DNA from: Candidatus Saccharimonadota bacterium
GTDB taxonomy: Bacteria; Patescibacteriota; Saccharimonadia; Saccharimonadales; Saccharimonadaceae
Reading direction: 5' to 3'
Assembly: GCA_009785325.1 (NCBI GenBank)
Contig: WQWN01000003.1
Coordinates: 24,450-88,449 of the forward strand
DNA: 64,000 nucleotides
Position 1 is the stretch's first letter, and the number at the start of each line of letters is the position of its first letter. Below, one piece after another: positions 2,469-37,711 of the stretch. The notes under the pieces were generated by a model. The model saw nothing but the letters and a program-made list of their open reading frames with translations, searched no databases and was not told the DNA's origin. Both the position numbers and the translations under genes were made by a program.

Positions 2469-3066
2469 CCTTCCTCGCCGCGATCATCGCGCGATATTCT
2501 TTATTTGACACCAAACTCCCTTTCTCAATGAAATCCGTAAACAACTTCCCCTCCAAATGATCCACTTCATGCTGCAAAACATGCGCCACGAACCCACTCA
2601 CCACCTCCTCACATTCTTCTCCACCCCGATCCAAATACTTCACTTTCACCTTCTTAAATCTCATCACCTGCGCCATCGCTGGCTCACCATTCTCATCTTG
2701 CGCCGTACTTACACATCCTTCCCACATCAACTTCGGCTCTCCGTAAGTCTCCACGATCTCCGCATTCACCAGCACCTTCTCAAAAACCTTCCGATTCGGT
2801 CGCACAAGCGTCGGCTTGATCGCGATCACACTGATCGCCATCGATTCCCCCACTTGGTTCGCGCTCAGTCCCACTCCATACTCATTTTCATCGCACGTAA
2901 ACTTAATATCATCAATCAAGCTCTGAATCACCTCTGATCTCACTTCTTCCTCTGTCAACTTCCGACACTTTTGACGCAAAGCCTCATCCCCCGCACCCAC
3001 CAACTTCAACATCTTCGGCCCCCTTCTATCTTCAAAGCCTCCCTCTCTAGATTCTTCCAGCTTCAT
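2452..3066 (-). CDS. def: peptide deformylase
   Basis: All three Def motifs are present: GVGLSANQVG, EGCVS and QHEVDHLEG. Confidence 0.9.
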   Translation of the reverse strand: MKLEESREGGFEDRRGPKMLKLVGAGDEALRQKCRKLTEEEVRSEVIQSLIDDIKFTCDENEYGVGLSANQVGESMAISVIAIKPTLVRPNRKVFEKVLVNAEIVETYGEPKLMWEGCVSTAQDENGEPAMAQVMRFKKVKVKYLDRGGEECEEVVSGFVAHVLQHEVDHLEGKLFTDFIEKGSLVSNKEYRAMIAARKDENEG

Positions 3067-3073
3067 GCACTAC

Positions 3074-3079
3074 ATTATA
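3074..3079 (-). promoter_or_regulatory. -10 TATAAT 7 nt upstream of the def ATG (leaderless-type)
   Basis: The rc of attata at 3074-3079. It lies directly after the terminator at 3090-3122. Confidence 0.5.
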
Positions 3080-3089
3080 CACTCCTTCT

Positions 3090-3122
3090 ATAAAAATGAG
3101 CCGCATTTTTCGAATGCGGCTC
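3090..3122 (-). terminator. intrinsic terminator (10-bp perfect stem GAGCCGCATT/AATGCGGCTC, 5-nt loop, followed by a T-tract on the minus strand)
   Basis: Stem 3098-3107 pairs with 3113-3122. The minus-strand continuation is ATTTTTAT (rc of 3090-3097). Confidence 0.75.
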
Positions 3123-3514
3123 GATGCGTGTTTTTATGCAGAAACACACAAAACTTTTTCGGGAAAAGATTTCATCATCAACCTCATAGACGCAGCCAAC
3201 AAACCACGTTTTATCCATGAAACTATCCAACTTCCTGCTTCGCCCTCGCACGCCCTACTTCCGAACATTCCAGGCGCCGTTCCCGCTCTCCGATTTTCTT
3301 TTATATAGAAAACCTCGACCACGCGACCGCCCTACTCAACCCAACTCCAACATGTTGCTGCTAGTATCTTCCGACCAAGCCGTATCCGCTGTTCTATCGC
3401 AAAAAATCTCGTCAGACTCTTCACTTCTCCAACTTCAACGCAGACCGTAGAACCTCTCTAGCTACTAGAGTTTTCTTTGTAAAGCCTTTCACGCAGCTCC
3501 GGTACGCCGACAGA

Positions 3515-4138
3515 TTACGCTGATTCTTTGTTAAGTCTTTTCTGATGACACACAATCTCCGCGTCAATCACAACAGGATCGTGAACCGTCCCACGAAACA
3601 CTTTTCTCGTAGTCGTAACTCCAAATTCAGAAGTATTAAACCCATATCCTGAGGTATCAACACCCCCAAGCCCAATCAGGCCAAATTTACCACCTTTACT
3701 GACCTTACATAATGCCAATCTCGCTTGCGCCGGTCTTCTCGTGAAATGATCTTCCCGAATGAAGGGATCGTCTGTCGCCGACGCCCACACTATTTCGATA
3801 CTGTCGTAGTTCTTCAAAACAAACTTTCCCGCCCGACAGTCAAACAATCCTCTGTTTCCATTCGGCATTATCACAGGCACAAATTGCGCGCCTTCCTGTT
3901 CATGTAAAAACCTGAACTTACCAAACGGCAAAATAATCTTGTTAACAACCTCCGGGCCATCTTCAATTCTTATCACTCCTTGCAGCTCATCTCTCTGCAA
4001 AATCAGAAACTTCACATGTATCATAGTGCAGGATCTTTCGAACATCCCCCTTACGTCGATCTTGTTACGCGTTCCAGCACCTATTTCAGCAAGTACCCTC
4101 GTCCCTTCTGGCAGTTTCATCTCTTCCCTCCTTGTCAA
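3515..4138 (-). CDS. hypothetical protein (207 aa), no recognisable family
   Basis: Long ORF with an AGGAGGGAAGAG SD-like run before the ATG. Its G/C composition is balanced, unlike the flanking genes. Confidence 0.5.
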   Translation of the reverse strand: MTRREEMKLPEGTRVLAEIGAGTRNKIDVRGMFERSCTMIHVKFLILQRDELQGVIRIEDGPEVVNKIILPFGKFRFLHEQEGAQFVPVIMPNGNRGLFDCRAGKFVLKNYDSIEIVWASATDDPFIREDHFTRRPAQARLALCKVSKGGKFGLIGLGGVDTSGYGFNTSEFGVTTTRKVFRGTVHDPVVIDAEIVCHQKRLNKESA

Positions 4139-4325: not shown

Positions 4326-5012
4326 CTACTTCTCCTCCTTGTTTTGTTCCAAAATCTCTCCATTCCGCAATCTTGCCCAGTACTTACCCACCACTTTCAC
4401 ATCTTCACCATCAACGACCACTGCACTCCAATCCGACAAAGTATAAACATCCCAATCCACATTCCTAGAAATATCAAAAACTACCACATCTTTCTCATCT
4501 GCCATCAAATTCCCTCCTCGCAGATGCGGCAAAATCGAAAAATCTAACAATTCCAAATATCGCCCCACACCCCAGTCGTCAAACTCACCAAACACTTGCC
4601 TCTGCCATTCCGCACTCACCATCTTACCCAAAATCATCGACCCCGCCGAACTCCCACACCACACTTTTTCCTTTAATAGCTCCGGCAGAATCTCCGAAAA
4701 CCCCGTCTTGTCAAAAACCGTCTTCAGATACTCCGTATTTCCACCAAAACAAAAAATCGCATCGGCTTCACTAATGCGCTCTTGTACCTTATCCAGCGGC
4801 AATGCTAATAAGTTCACTAACTCAAACCCACCAAAACGATGCTTCAAAAAATGCATTCCATCCACAAAAAATGAATTGTCGCCATGCTCGACTGCCACTG
4901 CCTCATTTATCACTGCGAATCTTATCTTCTTCGCAGGTTTTCCGACCAGCTCCTCTAGCTCTCTCGTCTCATCCAGACCCGTAAAATCCGACGAAAACAA
5001 AATCGCCTTCAC
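4326..5012 (-). CDS. peptidase S51 (dipeptidase E-like) family protein
   Basis: FCFGGNTEYL ... CGSSAGSMILG matches the nucleophile-elbow pattern of S51. The GTG start is 2 nt after the lepA N-fragment stop, with the SD inside the lepA end. Confidence 0.7.
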   Translation of the reverse strand: MKAILFSSDFTGLDETRELEELVGKPAKKIRFAVINEAVAVEHGDNSFFVDGMHFLKHRFGGFELVNLLALPLDKVQERISEADAIFCFGGNTEYLKTVFDKTGFSEILPELLKEKVWCGSSAGSMILGKMVSAEWQRQVFGEFDDWGVGRYLELLDFSILPHLRGGNLMADEKDVVVFDISRNVDWDVYTLSDWSAVVVDGEDVKVVGKYWARLRNGEILEQNKEEK

Positions 5013-5014
5013 CC

Positions 5015-5983
5015 CTACTTCCCCTCTCCGAAATACTTCTTCAAACTCACCGTATCTCCCACTCGCGCATCCCGCGTCGTCTTCAAATTCGTCACGATAT
5101 ACCCAATTTCTCCTGTCCCTAACTCATCCATCGGCATCATCCCTGGGCTCAACTTCCCAATCTCCAACGCCAACCCTGAAACCTCCGCCGCCATCATCCG
5201 CACCGCATCCCCCTTTCTCAACTTCCCATCCACTACCCTCACATAAAGCACTACTCCGCGATAATCATCATAATACGAATCAAAAATCAACGCCCGTAAA
5301 GGCCCTTCCGTATCACCAGTAGGCGCAGGTACTCGCTCCACCACCGCATCCAACACCTCTTTCACCCCCATTCCCGTCTTCGCCGAAATCTTCAAAATCT
5401 CATCCTCCCCACACCCCAACAAATTCATCACCTCCTTCGAAATCTTCGGCACATCCGCCGCTGGCAGGTCAATTTTATTTAGCACAGGAATTATCTTCAA
5501 ATCCTGCTCCATCGCCAGATATACATTCGCCAAAGTCTGCGCCTGAATCCCCTGACTCGCATCCACCACCAGAATCGCCCCCTCGCACGCCTGCAAACTC
5601 CGACTCACTTCGTAACTAAAATCCACATGCCCTGGCGTATCAATCAAGTTCAGTTCATAACTACCATTCAACGATTTTATATCTTCGATACTATGCGAGG
5701 AATCAGGAGTAGCGGAGTGAGCGGTATTTGACATACCGCGATCGAGCAACGCATCTGATGACAAAGTAGAGTGCGAAGCTACGAAATCGTACTTCATCCT
5801 CACCGGCGTCAATTTTATCGTAATCCCCTTCTCCCTCTCCAGCTCCATCGAATCTAGTAGCTGCTCTTTCATCTCTCGCTTATCCACCGTTGACGTCATC
5901 TCCATCATTCTGTCCGCCAGCGTCGACTTCCCATGATCAATATGCGCAATTATGCAAAAATTTCTGATCCGATCCAAACTCAC
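5015..5983 (-). CDS. lepA: elongation factor 4 (LepA), N-terminal half only (GTPase domain plus domain II), carrying a ~35-aa insert
   Basis: [30 protein letters not shown] and LNKIDLP are present. It ends ...[17 protein letters not shown], at the domain II/III linker. Confidence 0.9.
5669..5773. repeat. in-frame, bias-breaking insert in the LepA GTPase domain (putative RPE/MITE-like coding insertion)
   Basis: Encodes [35 protein letters not shown] between conserved KYDF.. and ..[11 protein letters not shown]. It is G-rich on the + strand, unlike its surroundings. It shares AGCTACGAAA (5777-5786) with the insert at 36613-36750. Confidence 0.45.
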
Positions 5984-12288: not shown

Positions 12289-13428
12289 TTAACCTTCCAA
12301 TTCTATCACATCTCGCCCCAGTTTCACCAACACGTCACCAGGCAAATTAAACTTCTTCCCATTCTCATAATTTCTAATCGCATCCAAAAACCGCAAAATC
12401 TGCTCCCTCATCGCCCTCACACTATTCACCTCCAACCATCCACGCAAAATCTCCACCGCCACATCATCATCCATCCCTCGATAAGACTCCCGCTGCACCA
12501 CATCCTCACCCTCCACGATCAGCCCCACGATTTCATCAATCTCCCGCTTCAACTTCAGCTGATTCTCATATAAAGCGAAAATTTTATCTCGGCACAAGCC
12601 ACTCTCATTTGACTGGGATTTCGCCAAGAGTGACGACTGAACGAACTCCATTCCGCGCCCAGGCGGACGAGAGTGTCTTGAAGACGATCGTAACCTCTTT
12701 CTCACTCGATTCCTCAAATAATCCTGACTACTATTCGTCGAATCCTCCCGCCACTCCAGTCCATTCCTCATCGCATACTCCAAAATCTCTTCCTTCCACA
12801 CCCCCAGCATCGGCCGCACTACCCCAGGACTATCCAGCGGCACCAGCCCCCTCCACCCCGTCCCCCGGATCAAATTTATCGCAACCGTCTCCACTAAATC
12901 ATCCGCATGATGCCCCGTCCAAATCTCCCCATCCTCACCCGCCACTTCCCATAAAAATCTATATCTTCTCTCCCTCGCCAACTCCTCACTCGCCCCCGCA
13001 CCCAACTCCTCTTTCCGACTCACGAACTCCACTCCGTATCTCTCTGCCAGCCCCCTCACAAACTCCTCATCCTCATCGCTATCTTCCCTGATCCCATGGT
13101 TAAAATGCGCAATTATCAAATCTGATAATTTCTCGCACTCTAGACAAGCCGAGAAGCTTCTGTTGGTTGGATTCTGAGATGTTTTTAACCTGTCTGACGT
13201 CAAGCACTCTAAACTCGCCGAGAGACTTACGTTGCTTGAGTGAAGAAATGTCTTTAGCTTTTCTGAGCTCAGAACTTTAGTCTCATTGCGAGAGTTTACG
13301 TGCGAGAAGTCAGACAAATTACAGACACATGCTGCCGCCATATCCAGCATCACCACCGAATCCACCCCCCCACTCACCGCCAAAACCACCCTCCTTCTCT
13401 CCCTATCTTTCGCCAATTCATTCGTCAT
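12289..13428 (-). CDS. tilS: tRNA(Ile)-lysidine synthase, carrying two atypical inserts
   Basis: The PP-loop VLAVSGGVDSVVM, IIAHFNHGIR, GHHADDLVET and REDSTNSSQDYLRNRVR are present. Confidence 0.8.
   Translation of the reverse strand: MTNELAKDRERRRVVLAVSGGVDSVVMLDMAAACVCNLSDFSHVNSRNETKVLSSEKLKTFLHSSNVSLSASLECLTSDRLKTSQNPTNRSFSACLECEKLSDLIIAHFNHGIREDSDEDEEFVRGLAERYGVEFVSRKEELGAGASEELARERRYRFLWEVAGEDGEIWTGHHADDLVETVAINLIRGTGWRGLVPLDSPGVVRPMLGVWKEEILEYAMRNGLEWREDSTNSSQDYLRNRVRKRLRSSSRHSRPPGRGMEFVQSSLLAKSQSNESGLCRDKIFALYENQLKLKREIDEIVGLIVEGEDVVQRESYRGMDDDVAVEILRGWLEVNSVRAMREQILRFLDAIRNYENGKKFNLPGDVLVKLGRDVIELEG
12595..12690. repeat. in-frame bias-breaking insert in tilS (second, C-proximal)
   Basis: Encodes about SSSRHSRPPGRGMEFVQSSLLAKSQSNESG right after the conserved DYLRNRVRKRL. 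It is G-rich on the + strand and contains GTGACGAC. Confidence 0.35.
13126..13329. repeat. in-frame bias-breaking insert in the tilS PP-loop domain (~68 aa) with internal repeats
   Basis: Lies between MLDMAAA and DLIIAHFNHG. It has an internal direct repeat (13135-13157 vs 13204-13226, 18/23 identical) and a perfect 14-bp palindrome TTCTGAGCTCAGAA (13261-13274). It shares CCGAGAGACT (13218-13227) with the ABC-F insert. Confidence 0.45.
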
Positions 13429-14458: not shown

Positions 14459-16243
14459 ATGCTCCTCCACGTCCAAATCACAGAAAAATCCTTCGGCTCC
14501 AAAAGCCTCTTTTCTCACATTAATTTTTCCGTCAACGACGGCGAAAAAATCGGTATCATCGGACGAAACGGTATCGGCAAAACCACTATCTTCAACATCC
14601 TCTCAGGCAAAGACACTGACTTCACAGGCGAAATCATCCAGCGCCGCGGCACCACTGCCGTCGCTACCTCCCAGGAATACCACGATGTCAAAAACCTCAC
14701 TACCACCCAGTACATCCTCTCCGGCCTCCCCGATTACGCCCGCCTCTCTGGGATCATCAACAACTTCTCCGAAATCACCACTCCCACTCACAAACAACTC
14801 ACCGAATTCTCCGACGCCCTCGAACTTTTTTCAAACAAAGACTACTACCACATCGAAGATCAAGTCCGCGAAGAACTCAAATCTTTCCAGCTCGAGTCAC
14901 ATGCCGACCAGCTTTTCTCCTCCCTCAGCGGCGGCCAAAAACGCCTCAGCGAAGTCATCAAAATCATGCACTCAAACGCCCATATCGCCCTCGTCGACGA
15001 ACCAACCAACTTCATGGACTACGTCGCCAAAAACCAATTCATCGAATGGATGAAGTCCGCCCCCGAAGCCATTCTCATCATCACCCACGACCGCGACGTA
15101 CTCCGCGAAGTCGACCGCATCATCGAAATCAAAGACCAAACAGCCATCAACTACAAAGGTAACTACGAATTTTATCTCCGCGAAAACACCTCCCGCACCT
15201 CAAACGCCATGACTGACTACGAGCTCGTCGAGCGCCGCATCGAGAATCTCAAACAAAAAATCCTCGACTACCAGCGCCTCAAAGAAAAAGCCCGCAACCC
15301 CGCCACTATTCAGCAGTTCAAACGCCTCGAAAACACCTCTCGAAAAGAACTCTCCGAACTCCAAAAAACCGAAAAACCCAACTTTTGGATCGACCGCAGT
15401 AGCGTCGAGCAGCTCGGCTACAAAGACACCGACCGCTACGACAAATACAAAGCCAAAAACGTCAAACTCGCCCTCAAATCCACCGAATCAAAATCTAAAA
15501 AGCTAATTGCCGAAGCCACCGACCTCTCCGTCGGCTACGACTCCCCCCTCTTCAAAAACATTAATTTCCAACTCCGCGAAGGCGAAGCTCTCGAAATCCG
15601 CGGCCGCAACGGAGCCGGCAAAACCACTCTAGTTCGCGCACTACTCTCGCTCAGCGATACAGACAGTAAGCGCAAGCTATTAGTTTCCGAGAGACTGGAA
15701 ACATCTGTGACGACAGATGTGGCTGAAATGGATGAGGCTACTCCGCATGACGATGCGCGAGTACCTCAGAATGCGCTCTCGGAAGCTAATGGGCTTAGCA
15801 GTCCGCTTACAATTTTCCACGGCGAATCCCACCTCGACCCTCACGTCCGCCTCGGCATCTACCACCAGGAAGTCGACACAAGGTACTTCGACCTCCTCCT
15901 CCCAGACGCCATCGACTGCCTCCACCAAGACGCAGGAATCATCATCAACGATCGCCGCATCCGCCAACTCATGTCCGACTATCTTTTCACCGACTCCGAC
16001 CGCGATGTTCTCGTCAAAAATCTCTCTGGTGGCCAAAAAGCCCGCCTCCAAATCATCGCCATGCTCGCCAACGACCCCACTCTCCTCATCCTCGACGAAC
16101 CCACCTCTCACCTCGACCTCCCAAGCATCGAGGAGCTCGAGCAAGCCCTCCTCCGCTACCACGGCGCCGTCCTCTACATTTCCCACGACAACTACTTCCG
16201 TCACGCCCTCCCCGCCCAAGTCCTCCAAATCCCCGACCGCTAA
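14459..16243 (+). CDS. ABC-F family ATPase (two ABC domains, no TM domain), with an insert in the second domain
   Basis: GIIGRNGIGKTT, LSGGQKRL and ALVDEPTN are in domain 1. IRGRNGAGKTT, LSGGQKARL and LILDEPTSHLD are in domain 2. Confidence 0.85.
   Translation: MLLHVQITEKSFGSKSLFSHINFSVNDGEKIGIIGRNGIGKTTIFNILSGKDTDFTGEIIQRRGTTAVATSQEYHDVKNLTTTQYILSGLPDYARLSGIINNFSEITTPTHKQLTEFSDALELFSNKDYYHIEDQVREELKSFQLESHADQLFSSLSGGQKRLSEVIKIMHSNAHIALVDEPTNFMDYVAKNQFIEWMKSAPEAILIITHDRDVLREVDRIIEIKDQTAINYKGNYEFYLRENTSRTSNAMTDYELVERRIENLKQKILDYQRLKEKARNPATIQQFKRLENTSRKELSELQKTEKPNFWIDRSSVEQLGYKDTDRYDKYKAKNVKLALKSTESKSKKLIAEATDLSVGYDSPLFKNINFQLREGEALEIRGRNGAGKTTLVRALLSLSDTDSKRKLLVSERLETSVTTDVAEMDEATPHDDARVPQNALSEANGLSSPLTIFHGESHLDPHVRLGIYHQEVDTRYFDLLLPDAIDCLHQDAGIIINDRRIRQLMSDYLFTDSDRDVLVKNLSGGQKARLQIIAMLANDPTLLILDEPTSHLDLPSIEELEQALLRYHGAVLYISHDNYFRHALPAQVLQIPDR
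15653..15815. repeat. in-frame bias-breaking insert in ABC-F domain 2, containing a perfect hairpin
   Basis: Encodes SDTDSKRKLLVSERLETSVTTDVAEMDEATPHDDARVPQNALSEANGLSSP between the Walker A and the conserved IYHQE. The hairpin is ACATCTGT-GACG-ACAGATGT at 15701-15720. I counted G=45 and C=35 over 15653-15808. Codons are G-ending, while the host gene uses C/A-ending codons. Confidence 0.5.
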
Positions 16244-16932: not shown

Positions 16933-17703
16933 TTAGTTATCCTGCTCAGCCTGCCATCTTGCCAGTGCGTCTTCCAAGTAACGGAAGTTGCTCTTTTCGC
17001 CAGCACGCACCGTCGCCCAAAGCGGCAGTTCCGGGTTATCTCTATTCTCTTCGATCCACACTTCATACCGATCTCTCGGATCGACTACGATGCCATGGAT
17101 GATAGTGAGTGTCCCTGTCGCATCGTCAAAACCATACGACAAGATTACTCTGAGACCATCTCGCATGGCGGTCGTCACGGTTTCCTCATCTCCCGATCGA
17201 GTCGTCGTACGAATCAGATCGCGCATCTTCTGCGCGAACCACTCCGTATCCTCCGGAACTTGATGTGATTCATACCTCATATAGGCAGATCTCAGCGGCA
17301 CTTCCAATCCACCATCCATGAGCCAGTACTCTGGGCGCAAAAACCGCGCCTCGATGATACCGTCATAATGAATAATATTAACACTGGTCCCGCCTCCTGT
17401 TTTCGCAATGATCATTCCGTCCACCGGGCGAAGCAACAACGTGCCACGCTCGGTGTCATACCCGACAATCCTCAGATTGCCGAGGTTTCCCATTGCCCGT
17501 CCGTCACGGATACTGAGCGTATCCGCAATTTGCATGTAAACACAGTTTTGAGCCTCTTCCGCCACAGCCGGCGCCGACGGTATCTCCATCGTAACTCCAA
17601 CCGCATATACCGGCTGTCCTAAAGACACCATCCCCCATACACCCACACCGCCGAAAAGCACCAAACAAGCCAACATTACAGCCCCTACACGCCCTGCTTT
17701 CAT
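16933..17703 (-). CDS. hypothetical secreted protein (signal peptide), no recognisable family
   Basis: N-terminal MKAGRVGAVMLACLVLFGGVGVWG. Balanced G/C composition. Confidence 0.5.
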   Translation of the reverse strand: MKAGRVGAVMLACLVLFGGVGVWGMVSLGQPVYAVGVTMEIPSAPAVAEEAQNCVYMQIADTLSIRDGRAMGNLGNLRIVGYDTERGTLLLRPVDGMIIAKTGGGTSVNIIHYDGIIEARFLRPEYWLMDGGLEVPLRSAYMRYESHQVPEDTEWFAQKMRDLIRTTTRSGDEETVTTAMRDGLRVILSYGFDDATGTLTIIHGIVVDPRDRYEVWIEENRDNPELPLWATVRAGEKSNFRYLEDALARWQAEQDN

Positions 17704-28638: not shown

Positions 28639-30240
28639 ATGCGCACCACTAAATTTTTAACCCGACTACCTTTTATCGCCAGCACAGTAGCAGTAGTAAT
28701 CTTTTCCGCACAGGTAATCATCACTAATAATATCAAACCCGCGAAGACTACCGCCCTATCCATAGCCTCCATCACACCAAACCAAGGCCCAACTACTGGC
28801 GGTGAACTGATTACTGTCACTGGAAGTCTCAATCTCGCTATCACTACCCCACAAATAGCAACCGGATTCATACACTCTCTCGGTATTGACAACAATAACC
28901 AACTCTGGACATGGGGCAGTAACAACAGTAGTCAGCTCGGCAACGGCACCTCTGTCTTCCTCAGTGCCACCCCCACTCCCGTCGATATGTCAGGTGTACT
29001 TACGGGACGAGTCATTACTCAGATCTCAACGCAAGGTAATCACAACCTCGTTCTAGACAGCAAAGGACACGTCTTTGCCTGGGGCGCAAACGCTGCTGGG
29101 CAGCTCGGTGACGGCACAAATACCAGCAGTAATACCCCTGTAGCTGTTGACACCTCCGGAGTTCTCGCAGGGCGCGTCATTACTCAAATCTCAGCTGGAT
29201 CTTCTCATTCTATCGCTCTAGACGACGAGGGACGTATCTTTACTTGGGGGTTAAATAGCTCCGGACAGCTCGGTGACGGCACAACTACCGGCAGTAGCAC
29301 GCCTATCGCAGTAGACATGTCTGGAGTGCTTGATGGCAAAAACATTACACAGATAACAGCCGGAGGCTCCTTCTCTCTCGCGCTAGACGACGAAGGAACG
29401 GTCTTTGCCTGGGGATCTAACGGATCTGGTCAACTTGGCAACGGCACAACTACCAATAGTAGTGTACCTGTGGCTGTTGACGTTTCTGGGGTTCTCGCAG
29501 GACGCGTCATTACTCAGATCACAGCTGGACTTACCCACACCCTCGCCCTCGACTCTAACGGACAAGTCCTGTCTTGGGGAAATAATGAATCTGGCCGCCT
29601 TGGCAACGGCACAACTACCAATAGTAGTGTACCTGTGGCTGTTGACGTTTCTGGGGTTCTCGCAGGACGTGTCATTACCCAGATCACAGCTGGCACCAAC
29701 CAATCCGTCGTACTCGACACTACCGGCCGAGCCTTTTCCTGGGGGAATAACGAACGAGCCCATCTCGGCAATCATTCAACTACAAACAGTAGCGTACCTG
29801 TAGCTGTCGGCACCTCTGGCGTACTAGCAGATCGCACTATCACCCAGATCGCAACTGGAAGTCTCAGGTCTCTCGCACTAGATGACGAAGGCAGGGTTTT
29901 TGCGTGGGGAGCGGGCATGAGTGGCGAACTAGGCAATGGCTCAATAAACATCATTGGCACCAGCCCAGTTTCCTCTTTCGACCTTCTTGTATCCCTTAAC
30001 ACTATTATGTCGGTTACTATCGGTGGCCTTCCTTGTACAGACGTCACTATCGTCGACTCCGACACCATTACTTGCACCACTCCGGCACACCCTGCCGGCA
30101 AAGCAGACGTCACCATCAATACCTCTGACGGCAGCTCAGTCACACTCCACCAAGCTTACACATATATATCTACCCTAGAAGCACCAAATACCGAAACTCC
30201 AGACATACCCAATACCGGATATTTCCGCTACAATAACTAA
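28639..30240 (+). CDS. RCC1-repeat (7-blade beta-propeller) surface protein flanked by IPT/TIG-like domains, with a C-terminal IPNTG motif
   Basis: Repeated WG.N..GQLG.GT and a signal-anchor N-terminus. GGLPCTDVTIVDSDTITCTTPAHPAGKADVTI is IPT-like. The protein ends ...DIPNTGYFRYNN*. Confidence 0.8.
   Translation: MRTTKFLTRLPFIASTVAVVIFSAQVIITNNIKPAKTTALSIASITPNQGPTTGGELITVTGSLNLAITTPQIATGFIHSLGIDNNNQLWTWGSNNSSQLGNGTSVFLSATPTPVDMSGVLTGRVITQISTQGNHNLVLDSKGHVFAWGANAAGQLGDGTNTSSNTPVAVDTSGVLAGRVITQISAGSSHSIALDDEGRIFTWGLNSSGQLGDGTTTGSSTPIAVDMSGVLDGKNITQITAGGSFSLALDDEGTVFAWGSNGSGQLGNGTTTNSSVPVAVDVSGVLAGRVITQITAGLTHTLALDSNGQVLSWGNNESGRLGNGTTTNSSVPVAVDVSGVLAGRVITQITAGTNQSVVLDTTGRAFSWGNNERAHLGNHSTTNSSVPVAVGTSGVLADRTITQIATGSLRSLALDDEGRVFAWGAGMSGELGNGSINIIGTSPVSSFDLLVSLNTIMSVTIGGLPCTDVTIVDSDTITCTTPAHPAGKADVTINTSDGSSVTLHQAYTYISTLEAPNTETPDIPNTGYFRYNN
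29434..29693 (+). repeat. near-identical 95-nt duplication inside RCC1 paralog 1 (copies 29434-29528 and 29599-29693, period 165 nt)
   Basis: 93/95 identical by direct comparison. Both copies encode LGNGTTTNSSVPVAVDVSGVLAGRVITQITAG. Confidence 0.85.
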
Positions 30241-32139: not shown

Positions 32140-33681
32140 ATGCAAACAACCCACAAATTTTTAAGTAGATTGTCATTTTTTGCGACCGTCGCAGTCGTGG
32201 CAGTTTTTTCGGTACAAGCAATAATTCTTAACACACTTAATCCATCAGAAACAGTAACTGCTCTTTCTATTACATCTATCACATCAAACGTTGGGCCGAC
32301 TTCTGGCAACGAACTTGTTACTATTACTGGGTATTTTGGAACTCAGGTATACATTACGCAGATTTCAGCAGGACGCGACCATTCTCTCGCACTTGACTCC
32401 ACTGGTCAAATTTGGGCATGGGGAGTTGGAGGAGCTGGTCAGCTCGGCAACGGGACTAATGAAAACAGTAATGTCCCCGTTGAAGTCGATACGACTGGCG
32501 TACTCGCTAATCGACAAATTATCCAAGTATCAGCTGGCGGCATTCATTCTTTAGCTCTCGACAGCGAAGGAAATGTATTCGCTTGGGGGATGGGTTTAAA
32601 TGGTCAACTTGGCAATGGAGTAAGTGAAAGTAGCAATGTCCCTGTTGAGGTAGATATGACTGGCGTACTCGCAGGAAATCCGATTATACAAATCTCGGCT
32701 GGCCTCAATTACTCATTAGCGCTTAGTGAAAGTAACAGGGTCTTCTCGTGGGGACTTGGTATGACTGGCCAACTCGGTAATGGCGGAAACGACAACCACA
32801 ATACACCTGTCGAAGTTCTGGATAAACCTGATATTATCCAGATCTCAGCTGGCGCAAACCATGCTTTAGCACTAAGTAGTGACGGTGCAGTTTTCGCATG
32901 GGGGCTAGGCATAGGTGGCCAGTTAGGAAATGGTATAAATACCTCTAGTAATGTTCCAGTTCCAGTAGGTGTTCCTGAACTTTTATCCGGAATTATACAA
33001 GTATCAGCTGGCCTCAATTACTCCTTAGCGCTTAGCGAGGATGGCAGTATCTTCGCATGGGGAGTTGGAGGATTTGGCCAACTCGGTAATGGCGTGAACA
33101 CCCCTAGTAATATCCCAGTCCTAGTAGATCTTTCTAGCGTACCAGCAGAGCGTAACATGGTTCAAATATCCGCTGGCTGGGGACACTCTCTCGCACTTGA
33201 CTCCACTGGTCAAATTTGGGCATGGGGACTAGGCATAGGTGGCCAGCTCGGCAACGGCACAAACGAAAGTAGCAACACACCAGTTGCAGTAAACATGAGC
33301 GAATTTATCGCAAAACAAGATATCGTACAGATATCAGCCGGTGGTAGCTTCTCTCTAGCCCTAGACTCCGCAGGTAATGTTTTCGCATGGGGACTAGGCA
33401 TAGGTGGCCAGTTAGGAAACGACACAAACGAGAATACCAATATACCCGTCTTCTCTTTTGGACTCAATACTCCACACATCACCTCCATCACACTCGGCGG
33501 CCTCCCATGTACAGATATCCAAATCATTAATCCAACTACTGTCACTTGTATCACTCCAGTACATCCGGCAGGAGTAGTAGATGTTACTGTAACTACTGTA
33601 AGCGGATCAGTCACCCTATATCAATCATACACTTTCATAGACCTACCAGACGTGCCGAATACGGGACACGAGAGGATCTAA
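32140..33681 (+). CDS. RCC1-repeat surface protein, paralog 2, with a C-terminal VPNTG motif
   Basis: Same architecture as 28639..30240. It ends ...LPDVPNTGHERI*. Confidence 0.8.
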   Translation: MQTTHKFLSRLSFFATVAVVAVFSVQAIILNTLNPSETVTALSITSITSNVGPTSGNELVTITGYFGTQVYITQISAGRDHSLALDSTGQIWAWGVGGAGQLGNGTNENSNVPVEVDTTGVLANRQIIQVSAGGIHSLALDSEGNVFAWGMGLNGQLGNGVSESSNVPVEVDMTGVLAGNPIIQISAGLNYSLALSESNRVFSWGLGMTGQLGNGGNDNHNTPVEVLDKPDIIQISAGANHALALSSDGAVFAWGLGIGGQLGNGINTSSNVPVPVGVPELLSGIIQVSAGLNYSLALSEDGSIFAWGVGGFGQLGNGVNTPSNIPVLVDLSSVPAERNMVQISAGWGHSLALDSTGQIWAWGLGIGGQLGNGTNESSNTPVAVNMSEFIAKQDIVQISAGGSFSLALDSAGNVFAWGLGIGGQLGNDTNENTNIPVFSFGLNTPHITSITLGGLPCTDIQIINPTTVTCITPVHPAGVVDVTVTTVSGSVTLYQSYTFIDLPDVPNTGHERI

Positions 33682-35943: not shown

Positions 35944-37416
35944 GTGACCAAACCAAAGACACCCACTAATTCAACCTCCTCACCCACAAAAATAGTGAAT
36001 TTTTTGATAATTTCCACCTGTATCATCCTCTTCGGCCTCGCAATCCACACCCCTATCATGGTCTTTCTATCTTCACAATTCCCCGCTGCTACTATCTTCT
36101 TCCAAGCATGGAAAGAAATTCTCCTCGGCGCAAACACCATCCTCGCCATCTACCTCATCACTCGCCAAAAACTCTGGCACACCTTCCTCCACCACGCTGT
36201 CTTCCGCGCCTCCGTCATCTTCTGTGTCTTTGGTCTCGTCGTCGCCCTCCTCACTTTCCAAAACTTTCATTCATTCGCCGCCGGCCTCATGATCGGCTTC
36301 CGCTTTATCCTAATTTTCCTCCTCATCTTCACTATCCTCCACCTCTATCCATCCGCCAAAAACCTTTTCCTGAAAACTATCATCGCTGGTGCCACTCTCA
36401 TCCTCACCTTCGGTACACTCCAAGCTCTCATCCTTCCGCACGACGTCTTATCCCACATCGGCTACTCCGAATCCACCATCCTCCCCTACCAAACCGTCGA
36501 CCAGAACTACGATTTCATCCGCATCAACTCCACCCTCCGCGGCCCCAACCCTCTCGGCGCCTTCGCTCTCATCACCCTCACCTTCGCCACTACGTACCTA
36601 TTATATTCATGGGTACAGAGACACAAAAACACACGTTCAGCACGCAATTCATCCTGTCGTATTACGCAGGACGGCGAGTACTTAGCTACGAAACCTGTGA
36701 CGACAGGATTGAGGAGCGGCGACGGGATGGATGGAGTGTTGAAATTACGTGTATTTTCTACCTTCCTCATCCTCACCTCTCTCATCTGCATCTATTATAG
36801 CTTTTCTCGCGCTGCTCTCCTCGCCTCTGTCATCTCTACCGCCACAGCCGCCTTCATCACTCTCTTCCACTTACGTCCCCAACTCATCAAAATCCTCCTC
36901 CCTACCATTCTCCTCCCTATCGCCCTTATCGCAACCACGATATTCATCCACCGCGACCACGCCTTCGTCCAAAACGTCTTTTTCCGCACCAACTACTATT
37001 CCACCAGTCCCGAAACCTCCGACGAACAGCGCATCGACTCACTCCAGCACGGCATTACTCAGATCTTCCAAAACCCTCTCGGCGTAGGTGTCGGCACCAC
37101 CGGATCTGCCTCACTTTACACCGACCACCCCATCATCCTCGAAAACCAGTTCCTCTTCGTCTCTCACGAAATCGGCATCTTCGGTCTCGTCATCTTCCTA
37201 TATATTCTCACTCTCATCTTCATCCCTCTCGTCAGACGCCACGACCCACTATCTGTCGCTACCTCCTCCGCTCTTGTCGGCCTCCTTGTTATTGGTCTCT
37301 TCCTGCCCGTCTTCGCCGATGAAACCGTCTCTATGATCTTCTTCACCCTCGCCGCAATCGCACTAACTACAAAAGGAGTAAAGTATGCCCACAAAAAAGC
37401 AAAAAGAACTTCTTAA
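35944..37416 (+). CDS. O-antigen ligase/polymerase-like (Wzy_C family) membrane protein carrying an insert
   Basis: About 10-12 TM helices. The YYSFSRAALLA...HNQFL-like ENQFLFVSHEIG pattern is present. The start (GTG at 35944) is uncertain. Confidence 0.6.
   Translation: MTKPKTPTNSTSSPTKIVNFLIISTCIILFGLAIHTPIMVFLSSQFPAATIFFQAWKEILLGANTILAIYLITRQKLWHTFLHHAVFRASVIFCVFGLVVALLTFQNFHSFAAGLMIGFRFILIFLLIFTILHLYPSAKNLFLKTIIAGATLILTFGTLQALILPHDVLSHIGYSESTILPYQTVDQNYDFIRINSTLRGPNPLGAFALITLTFATTYLLYSWVQRHKNTRSARNSSCRITQDGEYLATKPVTTGLRSGDGMDGVLKLRVFSTFLILTSLICIYYSFSRAALLASVISTATAAFITLFHLRPQLIKILLPTILLPIALIATTIFIHRDHAFVQNVFFRTNYYSTSPETSDEQRIDSLQHGITQIFQNPLGVGVGTTGSASLYTDHPIILENQFLFVSHEIGIFGLVIFLYILTLIFIPLVRRHDPLSVATSSALVGLLVIGLFLPVFADETVSMIFFTLAAIALTTKGVKYAHKKAKRTS
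36613..36750. repeat. in-frame bias-breaking insert in the O-antigen-ligase-like gene, colinear with the ABC-F insert
   Basis: Encodes VQRHKNTRSARNSSCRITQDGEYLATKPVTTGLRSGDGMDGVLKLR in a loop between TM helices. Shared words: CTGTGACGACAG (36695-36706; stem CCTGT/ACAGG), GCGAGTAC (36674-36681) and AGCTACGAAA (36684-36693). Confidence 0.5.
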
Positions 37417-37711
37417 TTTTATCGAAAAATTCCTCGCAACCAACGACTACTCTCCCAGTTACCGCGAAATCATGACCGCCCTCGGCTACCGCTCCGTCTC
37501 CACCGTCGCTGAACACATCAACAACCTCGTCGCCCAAAACCTCCTGATTAAAGACGAATCCAACCCTCGCTCCCTCACTCTCTCCTCCGCCGAAGACCCC
37601 CATCATGCATGGTTCCGCACCAAATACCAAGAACTCAAGTCCCAAAACCCCAACCCCACCACCCTCGCCGCCATCGAAAAAACCGCCACTGCTTTCGATA
37701 TTTCACTATAA
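37385..37711 (+). CDS. LexA-like winged-helix DNA-binding protein lacking the S24 peptidase domain
   Basis: KKQKELLNFIEKFLATNDYSPSYREIMTALGYRSVSTVAEHINNLVAQNLL matches the LexA N-terminal domain. It is only 108 aa and overlaps the upstream gene by 32 nt. Confidence 0.6.
   Translation: MPTKKQKELLNFIEKFLATNDYSPSYREIMTALGYRSVSTVAEHINNLVAQNLLIKDESNPRSLTLSSAEDPHHAWFRTKYQELKSQNPNPTTLAAIEKTATAFDISL

Follow-up and report, generated by a model that had tools for sequence, protein, structure and literature searches.

We examined a 64,000-nucleotide (nt) stretch of a Candidatus Saccharimonadota genome (assembly GCA_009785325.1, contig WQWN01000003.1, positions 24,450–88,449 of the forward strand; hereafter the window) in which a gene for a Wzy_C/O-antigen-ligase-family membrane protein (35944–37416, plus strand; 490 amino acids (aa) from the first GTG) carries a translated insert. 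Protein searches likewise assign the source to Saccharibacteria (TM7). The insert is a lineage-specific, in-frame, whole-length palindrome whose composition is unlike that of its host gene, and it has sister inserts elsewhere in the window. The NCBI version of the host protein (MCL2444891.1) is 452 aa long, and the contig of this metagenome-assembled genome (MAG) spans 88,857 bp. The Pfam profile PF04932 (Wzy_C) matches the host open reading frame (ORF) with an E-value of 2.2e-11; the score of 44.2 bits exceeds the 31.7-bit cut-off, and the match spans positions 2–149 of the 149 in the profile. More than 1500 homologs, for the most part from Saccharibacteria, have a usual length of 430–446 aa; the best relative shares 41% identity, and a cluster member of the host protein carries the NCBI name. 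By sequence, the host gene is a member of the Wzy_C/O-antigen ligase family. Its external loop (residues 336–411) contains the invariant residues S359, S366 and P378 plus a G380–S390 motif. The nearest Wzy relative (contig L001, 221–3547) has the gene order Wzy_C – (DUF6311) – LexA_DNA_bind; in the window, the next gene after Wzy is a small one with a LexA DNA-binding domain (37385–37711), and there is no DUF6311 gene.

The initial annotation had flagged 46 codons (36613–36750, plus strand) as an in-frame insert in a loop between transmembrane (TM) helices, and this description proved exact: the segment is stop-free and in frame in the ORF and lies between TM6 and TM7. In a 14-sequence alignment ∼35 residues (∼R234–L268, 36643–36747) are missing from 12 of the 13 homologs, and the TM6–TM7 loop is longer by 35 to 38 aa. 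The corresponding segment (G205–S288) measures 83 aa in the query gene. Of the 119 homologs compared, 118 have 44–49 aa there, and the remaining one, the closest relative (P0002), has 58 aa. The insert is therefore real and lineage-specific, and the site is no general hot spot. Conservation across the protein family had been named as one finding that would speak against the annotation; the insert is absent from 118 of the 119 homologs, so this check does not overturn it. Homology between the insert and the longer loop of P0002 was considered and rejected (P = 0.55).

The annotation had also asked on which side of the membrane the insert lies. In a 12-TM layout drawn by hand from the hydropathy profile and lysine and arginine (K/R) counts, the TM6–TM7 loop with its insert is predicted to be cytoplasmic, with both the N and C termini inside. 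The segment script alone picked 10 segments, passing over helices near residues 56–73 and 204–222 that are present as helices in the AlphaFold2 (AF2) model. The TM6–TM7 loop is K/R-rich both in homologs and in the window protein. The AF2 model has a predicted local distance difference test score (pLDDT) of 86 and a predicted template modelling score of 0.87; residues 236–261 are modelled as coil (pLDDT 52–66) flanked by two extended helices. The likely consequence for the Wzy protein is small, as the predicted disordered cytoplasmic loop is remote from the external catalytic loop.

The insert is set in DNA of extreme strand asymmetry. The plus strand of the window has 35.2% C and 13.9% G, a skew independent of gene orientation. 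At four-fold degenerate sites, plus-strand genes have 1.9% G and 62% C, and minus-strand genes are the mirror image. Because the GC skew is so extreme and independent of the gene strand, amino-acid usage differs strongly between genes of opposite strands. Related contigs are also strongly skewed (L001, +0.48; L171, +0.38). Some Microgenomates are described in the literature as having a comparable disparity between G and C (PMC7143001), and no Saccharibacteria paper on such GC skew was among the top 10 of 420 matches in our literature search on skew. G occupies 28% of third codon positions in the Wzy insert versus 4.7% in the remaining gene (Fisher p 1.7e-6), which bears out the G-richness that the annotation had noted. 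The left half of the insert (G 14, C 17) is also unlike the G-poor host gene.

The Wzy gene contains a full-length imperfect palindrome of 122 nt (36631–36752) with 44 pairs, four of them G-U, and 72% of its bases paired. A 13-bp outer stem (P1) joins 36631–36643 with 36736–36752 and includes a 4-nt bulge, a 12-bp second stem (P2) joins 36647–36658 with 36721–36732, and two small tip hairpins give the palindrome a Y shape. The tip hairpin CCTGT-GACG-ACAGG (36694–36707, plus strand) contains the 12-mer CTGTGACGACAG and reads VTT. The CCTGT/ACAGG stem singled out in the initial annotation is only the tip of a hairpin running the full 122 nt. Folded as RNA, the palindrome has a minimum free energy (MFE) of −54.6 kcal/mol (z −4.78), and none of 200 dinucleotide shuffles was as stable. 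DNA parameters give z −5.40 on the plus strand and −2.86 on the minus strand; the RNA z is −4.8 in the sense versus −3.7 in the antisense direction. Among ∼2130 overlapping 130-nt segments scanned across the 64 kb (median MFE −14.3), the insert in an ABC-F gene of the window ranks first (15661–15790; −57.4, z −6.7) and the Wzy insert second (36631–36760; −51.6, z −5.2). Dinucleotide-preserving shuffles were used for the single-element folds (Wzy as RNA and DNA, ABC-F, TilS, LepA-like and region 17401–17530), and mononucleotide shuffles for the 64-kb scan, the island folds, the insert strand comparison (ABC-F, TilS), the ABC-F loci and contigs L171 and L172.

A search of the window against Rfam 15 at gathering thresholds matched only a tRNA. 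At E ≤ 1 nothing fell on 36560–36820, and the ABC-F insert gave a chance-level snoRNA match only. The lack of Rfam matches at either threshold argues against captured rRNA or tRNA fragments.

Our insert survey covered the 64-kb window, which contains at least four protein-coding palindromes, located in the Wzy, ABC-F, TilS and LepA-like genes. All four are whole-length imperfect palindromes of 120–148 nt with 67–73% of bases paired, and all are in frame and stop-free. The strand-disfavoured base makes up 23–31% of third codon positions in all four inserts versus 4–6% in the remaining host genes (Fisher p 3e-4 to 9e-8). The ABC-F palindrome (15666–15810; 145 nt, MFE −75, z −5.83) lies in gene 14459–16243 (plus strand) and adds 49 aa after the Walker-A helix of the second nucleotide-binding domain (NBD2). 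Its nearest relatives, at best 67% identical, are 543 aa long and insert-free. The ABC-F insert folds with z −4.8 in the sense versus −3.1 in the antisense direction.

The TilS palindrome (13180–13327; 148 nt, fold z −4.2) lies in the tilS gene at 12289–13428 (minus strand). The insert (∼13131–13335) follows the PP-loop helix and adds 59 to 68 aa according to PDB and homolog alignments. It has a self-inverse match of 154 nt (68%, E 8e-11) and a direct-repeat match of 99 nt (E 1e-8), with direct repeats of ∼69 nt within the insert, and it folds equally well on either strand. A Logan contig of different length (P0242) reproduces the TilS protein at 100% identity; the match covers 96% of the query and spans the insert. 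Native TilS codons adjoining the palindromic insert hold a perfect 8-bp inverted repeat, AATTATCA-AATC-TGATAATT (13111–13130). TilS also has a second lineage-specific insert (12588–12690, minus strand; residues ∼247–280, SSRHSRPPGRGMEFVQSSLLAKSQSNESGLCRD), with balanced G/C and weak self-complementarity (z ∼ −1.5); two other homologs have different long inserts there.

The LepA-like palindrome (5671–5790; 120 nt) lies in a LepA-like GTPase gene at 5015–5983 (minus strand), where the insert (5666–5785) puts 40 residues in place of four in Aquifex LepA (alignment to PDB 2ywe). It matches its own inverse over 125 nt (62%) with a perfect hairpin at the centre, and its fold spans the entire element. 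This fold is the weakest of the four: mononucleotide shuffles give z −3.4 on the plus strand, but dinucleotide shuffles put the sense strand at only −0.7 and −1.65. The LepA-like gene codes for the N-terminal 322 aa only (GTPase domain and domain II, equivalent to residues 1–283 of 600-aa LepA structures) and is directly followed by a Peptidase_S51 gene (4326–5012, minus strand). A lepA frameshift was considered and rejected; the ORF is the N-terminal half of LepA, a truncated or split EF4, with the Peptidase_S51 gene after it.

Other candidate regions of the window did not join this set. A blastn all-against-all comparison of 33 G=C-balanced islands of the window recovered no family, and most islands fold no better than shuffles. 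A G-rich island is thus not equal to a palindromic insert, and only the four listed qualify. Region 17401–17530 scored well in the scan and was rejected at z −1.3 with dinucleotide shuffles, and region 3061–3183 is an ordinary intrinsic terminator (3098–3122, minus strand; GAGCCGCAUUCGAAAAAUGCGGCUC then a U run) downstream of gene 3515–4138. Two RCC1-repeat/TIG-domain genes (28639–30240 and 32140–33681) are built of 165-nt repeats that are 60–70% identical to each other; unlike their surroundings they have balanced G/C (skew ∼0), which suggests recent acquisition or strong constraint.

The initial annotation had proposed that the inserts are related and had listed shared words in support. The 12-mer CTGTGACGACAG occurs in the window only at 15705 and 36695, in the ABC-F and Wzy inserts exactly where reported, and encodes VTT in both. 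The word GCGAGTAC is likewise present in both inserts and has six copies in the window, among them 15757 and 36674. The word AGCTACGAAA, found only at 5777 and 36684, does occur in both the lepA and Wzy inserts as claimed, but the match is probably coincidental because the lepA 10-mer spans the host/insert junction (native codons K-Y-D-F). Dinucleotide shuffles of the four inserts give P = 0.0145 for a shared word of at least 12 nt, close to the rough chance expectation of 0.03 in the annotation, and four independent shared words of at least 10 nt yield six shared 10-mers versus 0.39 expected. The best local alignment between the Wzy and ABC-F inserts is the 19-nt tip GAAAC[AT]CTGTGACGACAG (P = 0.005, uncorrected for 12 comparisons), which is read in one frame (VTT) in both. 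What the inserts do share is the whole-length palindrome form, the in-frame placement and the non-host codon usage, and the TilS insert, which the annotation had not listed, can be added to the set; kinship in sequence is not established and, from these words and alignments, only suggestive.

One account of these data is that the Wzy insert is a normal lineage-specific indel, or an assembly artefact, whose fold and shared words come from chance or chimeric assembly. Loops between TM helices do vary in length, the Wzy insert is known from one assembly (the JGI and NCBI records are the same 88,857-bp contig), and the P values for word sharing are modest. We nevertheless regard this account as highly improbable, given a Wzy fold at z −4.8 to −5.4 that none of 200 dinucleotide shuffles equalled, three sister inserts of the same architecture and a TilS protein reproduced with its insert in the P0242 Logan contig. 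The palindromes are also imperfect and do not copy adjacent sequence, unlike amplification chimeras, and the phenomenon is present in many independent assemblies.

Many Saccharibacteria encode ABC-F proteins of 584–636 aa versus the usual ∼545 aa, and all surplus residues lie at one site. Among 88 ABC-F loci the basal loop is 13 aa, and ∼25 loci carry an additional 10 to 95 aa there, every one in frame and stop-free. Insert presence, length and sequence vary between genes that are 72–83% identical. Six long inserts form strong hairpins (z ≤ −5), in the window and in L004, L006, L010, L093 and L110, and of these only the window departs from ordinary GC skew; among the long ABC-F inserts, about half give no fold signal. 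The TilS site, too, holds unrelated inserts in other lineages, and the two tested fold significantly (L171, z −5.9; L172, z −3.3). The L172 insert contains perfect mini-palindromes of 18–25 nt. Our literature search found no published account of palindromic in-frame inserts in Saccharibacteria.

One family of ABC-F inserts, here called module A, occupies a single codon site in the forward orientation in L004, L170, L088, L115, L168 and L169 and reverse-complemented in L090, L103 and L110. Its invariant core blocks AACGGCTTCG and GGGCTGCAGAT, of 10–11 nt, face each other in the stem with a mismatch about every third base. Its outer stems covary, and seven of 24 consensus stem pairs show compensatory double changes. 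Inner stem-loops have been swapped for unrelated hairpins with the flanks retained, and between lineages the inner segment is flipped with the outer arm AAATCTTCAGAAAC left in place. Since module A is conserved regardless of orientation, constraint or conversion acts on the nucleic acid, not the peptide. The idea that its orientation follows replication direction was rejected, as there is no correlation with local GC skew. An nhmmer profile of module A (alignment A3) found nothing better than E 0.35 in the window and nothing in any insert, and a resemblance to module A that had been noticed by eye in the ABC-F and Wzy inserts of the window (GAAACATCTG...) was unsupported by nhmmer and by pattern searches.

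Several further observations concern these contigs. L103 has two different modules in tandem at the ABC-F site. A reverse-transcriptase-like gene (L169 1–473; weak RVT_1 match) lies directly upstream of a module A-bearing ABC-F gene, which may be coincidence. Additional 130-nt segments of other Saccharibacteria fold at z −3 to −5.9 (L007 991–1330; L004 6001–6160; L006 5521–5680 and 16261–16390; L005 9481–9640), and some of these segments lie at gene starts.

These patterns bear on whether the hairpin is kept for a function as nucleic acid, for example by slowing ribosomes before TM7, by affecting mRNA stability or as a protein-bound DNA hairpin or cruciform, with the peptide as a by-product. 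The hairpins persist despite a very strong G-depleting bias, and the conserved blocks of module A, with their regularly spaced mismatches, covarying stems and variable terminal hairpin, form the pattern of a functional element. The sense strands of the Wzy and ABC-F inserts also fold better than the antisense strands, owing to G-U pairs. Selection for such a structure nonetheless seems unlikely to us. The nearest relatives lack the inserts, so any function would be dispensable. The occurrence of module A in both orientations argues against a sequence-specific RNA, and its orientation is independent of local GC skew. The TilS insert folds equally on both strands, about half of the long ABC-F inserts have lost the fold signal, and at E ≤ 1 Rfam offers no match for the Wzy insert and only the chance-level snoRNA match for ABC-F.

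Our leading explanation, held tentatively and with rather less than even confidence, is that a pre-formed palindromic unit was inserted, in the manner of the Rickettsia palindromic elements (RPEs), with template switching as a maintenance process. A self-complementary DNA unit of ∼120 nt would have been added whole and in frame to the short basic cytoplasmic TM6–TM7 loop, where the palindrome would be translated as a disordered extension that the protein tolerates rather than uses. Its defining property would lie at the nucleic-acid level, where pairing of the arms could give a hairpin when the DNA or RNA is single-stranded, or a cruciform when the DNA is duplex. Such a palindrome would most likely be small, selfish and non-autonomous, landing as RPEs do in permissive loops of proteins, and only its in-frame, stop-free insertions would survive. 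Exchange between the arms, by template switching or inverted-repeat conversion, may keep them complementary, renew the inner stems and flip the unit; it would also explain the persistence of G-rich arms on a strand with ∼2% G at neutral sites. We infer mobility, neutrality for the protein and the arm-conversion mechanism, and the evidence from covariation and inversion comes from the ABC-F site of other Saccharibacteria and would extend to the Wzy insert by analogy.

Insertion of a pre-formed unit is favoured first by length: for at least three of the four inserts, the added sequence approximates the palindrome as a whole rather than a single arm. The Wzy insert adds 38 aa (114 nt) and its palindrome is 122 nt; the corresponding values are 49 aa (147 nt) and 145 nt for ABC-F, 36 aa (108 nt) and 120 nt for the LepA-like gene, and 177–204 nt and 148 nt for TilS, whose surplus matches the 69-nt direct repeats. 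In addition, neither half of the Wzy insert has the G-poor composition of the host, insert sizes cluster, and the Wzy and ABC-F inserts share the tip motif. Further support comes from the rank of these two inserts as the best-folding of the ∼2130 segments, from the non-host third-position composition of all four inserts, and from the in-frame ABC-F and folding TilS inserts of other lineages, which show that the phenomenon is general in Saccharibacteria.

A number of observations weigh against a pre-formed unit. The four window inserts do not form a multi-copy family, no two of them align beyond ∼19 nt, and there is no intergenic copy among the best-folding segments of the 64 kb. Inspection of the flanks showed no target-site duplication or shared terminal consensus, and no transposase is linked to the inserts. 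The Wzy site is not a hot spot, and with its best relative at 41% identity it offers only distant comparison. The ABC-F and TilS sites hold many unrelated inserts in a length continuum from +1 to +95 aa, and this continuum, together with the mini-palindromes of L172, looks more like local growth than like discrete elements. The TilS direct repeats, moreover, resemble neighbouring host codons.

An origin in situ ranks closely behind and is a real, if lesser, possibility. Here the palindrome would have grown in a permissive loop from a small quasi-palindromic seed, through local duplication together with replication template switches that copy a fold-back, homogenise the arms and invert the spacer, with no mobile element and with the shared words coincidental. 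Every insert is unique in sequence, and the ABC-F and TilS loops hold unrelated inserts of every size across lineages. The inner stem turnover and in-place inversion of module A, with the flanks kept, fit it as well, since arm homogenisation and spacer inversion are described outcomes of template switching in coding DNA (PMC8604942); template switching has likewise been proposed for the coding palindromes of Nematomorpha (PMC6649704). The TilS insert mixes 69-nt direct repeats with inverted repeats and has the perfect 8-bp inverted repeat at its native-codon junction, and L172 has its perfect mini-palindromes. On the other side, at least three of the four inserts add nearly the full length of the palindrome, and not that of a single arm and a loop. 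The insert arms are unlike flanking or other window sequence, the repeats inside the TilS insert excepted, and short perfect inverted repeats are not significantly in excess in the window (10 versus 5.6 ± 3.2). Mutation alone also leaves unexplained the invariant 10–11-nt blocks that module A retains in both orientations.

Among known systems, the closest to the inserted unit that we favour are the RPEs (RPE-1 to RPE-10) and, in Wolbachia, palindromic repeats that code for protein (Ogata et al. 2000, 2002, 2005, per PMC2229807). RPEs are 105–146 bp long, fold into a long stem-loop and occur as in-frame fusions within conserved genes (PMC2229807). The Saccharibacteria inserts, compared with RPEs by description only, are 120–148 nt, in or next to this range, and also form a whole-element stem-loop. 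Like RPEs, they are in-frame fusions within conserved genes of a host-dependent bacterium with a reduced genome, are absent from the orthologs of relatives and appear to be tolerated at protein surfaces. However, RPEs are recognisable multi-copy families that also occur between genes, whereas here the shared motif is at most 19 nt and no copy between genes was seen among the best-folding segments of the 64 kb. The inserts described here also belong to another phylum (candidate phyla radiation (CPR)/Patescibacteria) and hit the same protein loops repeatedly across lineages, and one family, module A, occurs in both orientations with conserved core blocks. The Wzy insert itself agrees with RPEs in size and stem-loop and is in frame, stop-free and absent from orthologs; as no multi-copy family appears in the 64 kb, we file it as RPE-like and not as an RPE.

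Other systems share fewer features. The coding palindromes of hairworms (Nematomorpha; PMC6649704) are long inverted repeats in translated genes that are gained and lost between species under strong strand asymmetry, and the study that described them suggests that the repeats are parasitic in character and that arms are actively converted or templates switched (PMC6649704). Hairworm repeats, however, are perfect, with conserved protein segments encoded by each of the two arms, whereas the inserts described here are imperfect (67–73% paired), lineage-specific loop insertions; in the Wzy insert the arms have four G-U pairs and bulges, and the whole palindrome is absent from homologs. Template-switch mutations (PMC8604942, PMC5453318) predict compensatory-looking changes, inner-hairpin turnover and in-place inversion as seen in the module A family. 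The described events, however, involve short repeats and a few codons and have not been shown to build in-frame palindromes of 120–300 nt or to hold them against a strong compositional bias. Bacterial MITEs (transposable miniature elements with inverted repeats; Correia/NEMIS, ERIC, RUP) are 100–200 bp long, their transcripts fold into long stem-loops and some are fused to ORFs. MITEs differ in that they come in many similar copies, end in defined terminal inverted repeats and are flanked by target-site duplications (often TA), features that were not seen in the 64 kb. The Wzy insert has a 13-bp outer stem, and inspection showed no flanking direct repeat; the nearest insert-free relatives, with ∼75% DNA identity at best, are too diverged to place its boundaries. 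Finally, the Byp elements of Magnusiomyces mitochondria and the coding gap of T4 gene 60 are compositionally distinct hairpin inserts inside coding genes. Ribosomes skip over these inserts, which can lie out of frame, whereas the window inserts and the ∼25 ABC-F inserts are in frame and stop-free.

Protein-coding palindromes have so far been presented as a peculiarity of Rickettsia, Wolbachia and hairworm mitochondria, and Saccharibacteria would extend this range. We can further conjecture, with considerable doubt, that Saccharibacteria (and perhaps other CPR bacteria) harbour an undescribed class of palindromic elements that live in protein loops under nucleotide-level constraint and recur at particular loops, after the Walker-A or PP-loop helix. 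Such elements might be site-specific mobile elements or self-renewing cruciforms kept by conversion, and the Wzy insert might then be a fresh copy or an offshoot in an extremely GC-skewed lineage. The window could provide a natural test system, as any maintained stem stands out where neutral sites of one strand have ∼2% G, and the ABC-F and TilS sites, with their many independent gains, losses and flips, could help to tell mobility, template switching and selection apart. Annotation and phylogeny are affected as well, since alignments of conserved CPR marker proteins become inflated and distorted where they include such inserts. Translated palindromes are also a possible route to new loop sequence and thus to protein innovation. 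If the finding holds, small, repair-poor, host-dependent genomes may generally accumulate translated palindromes.

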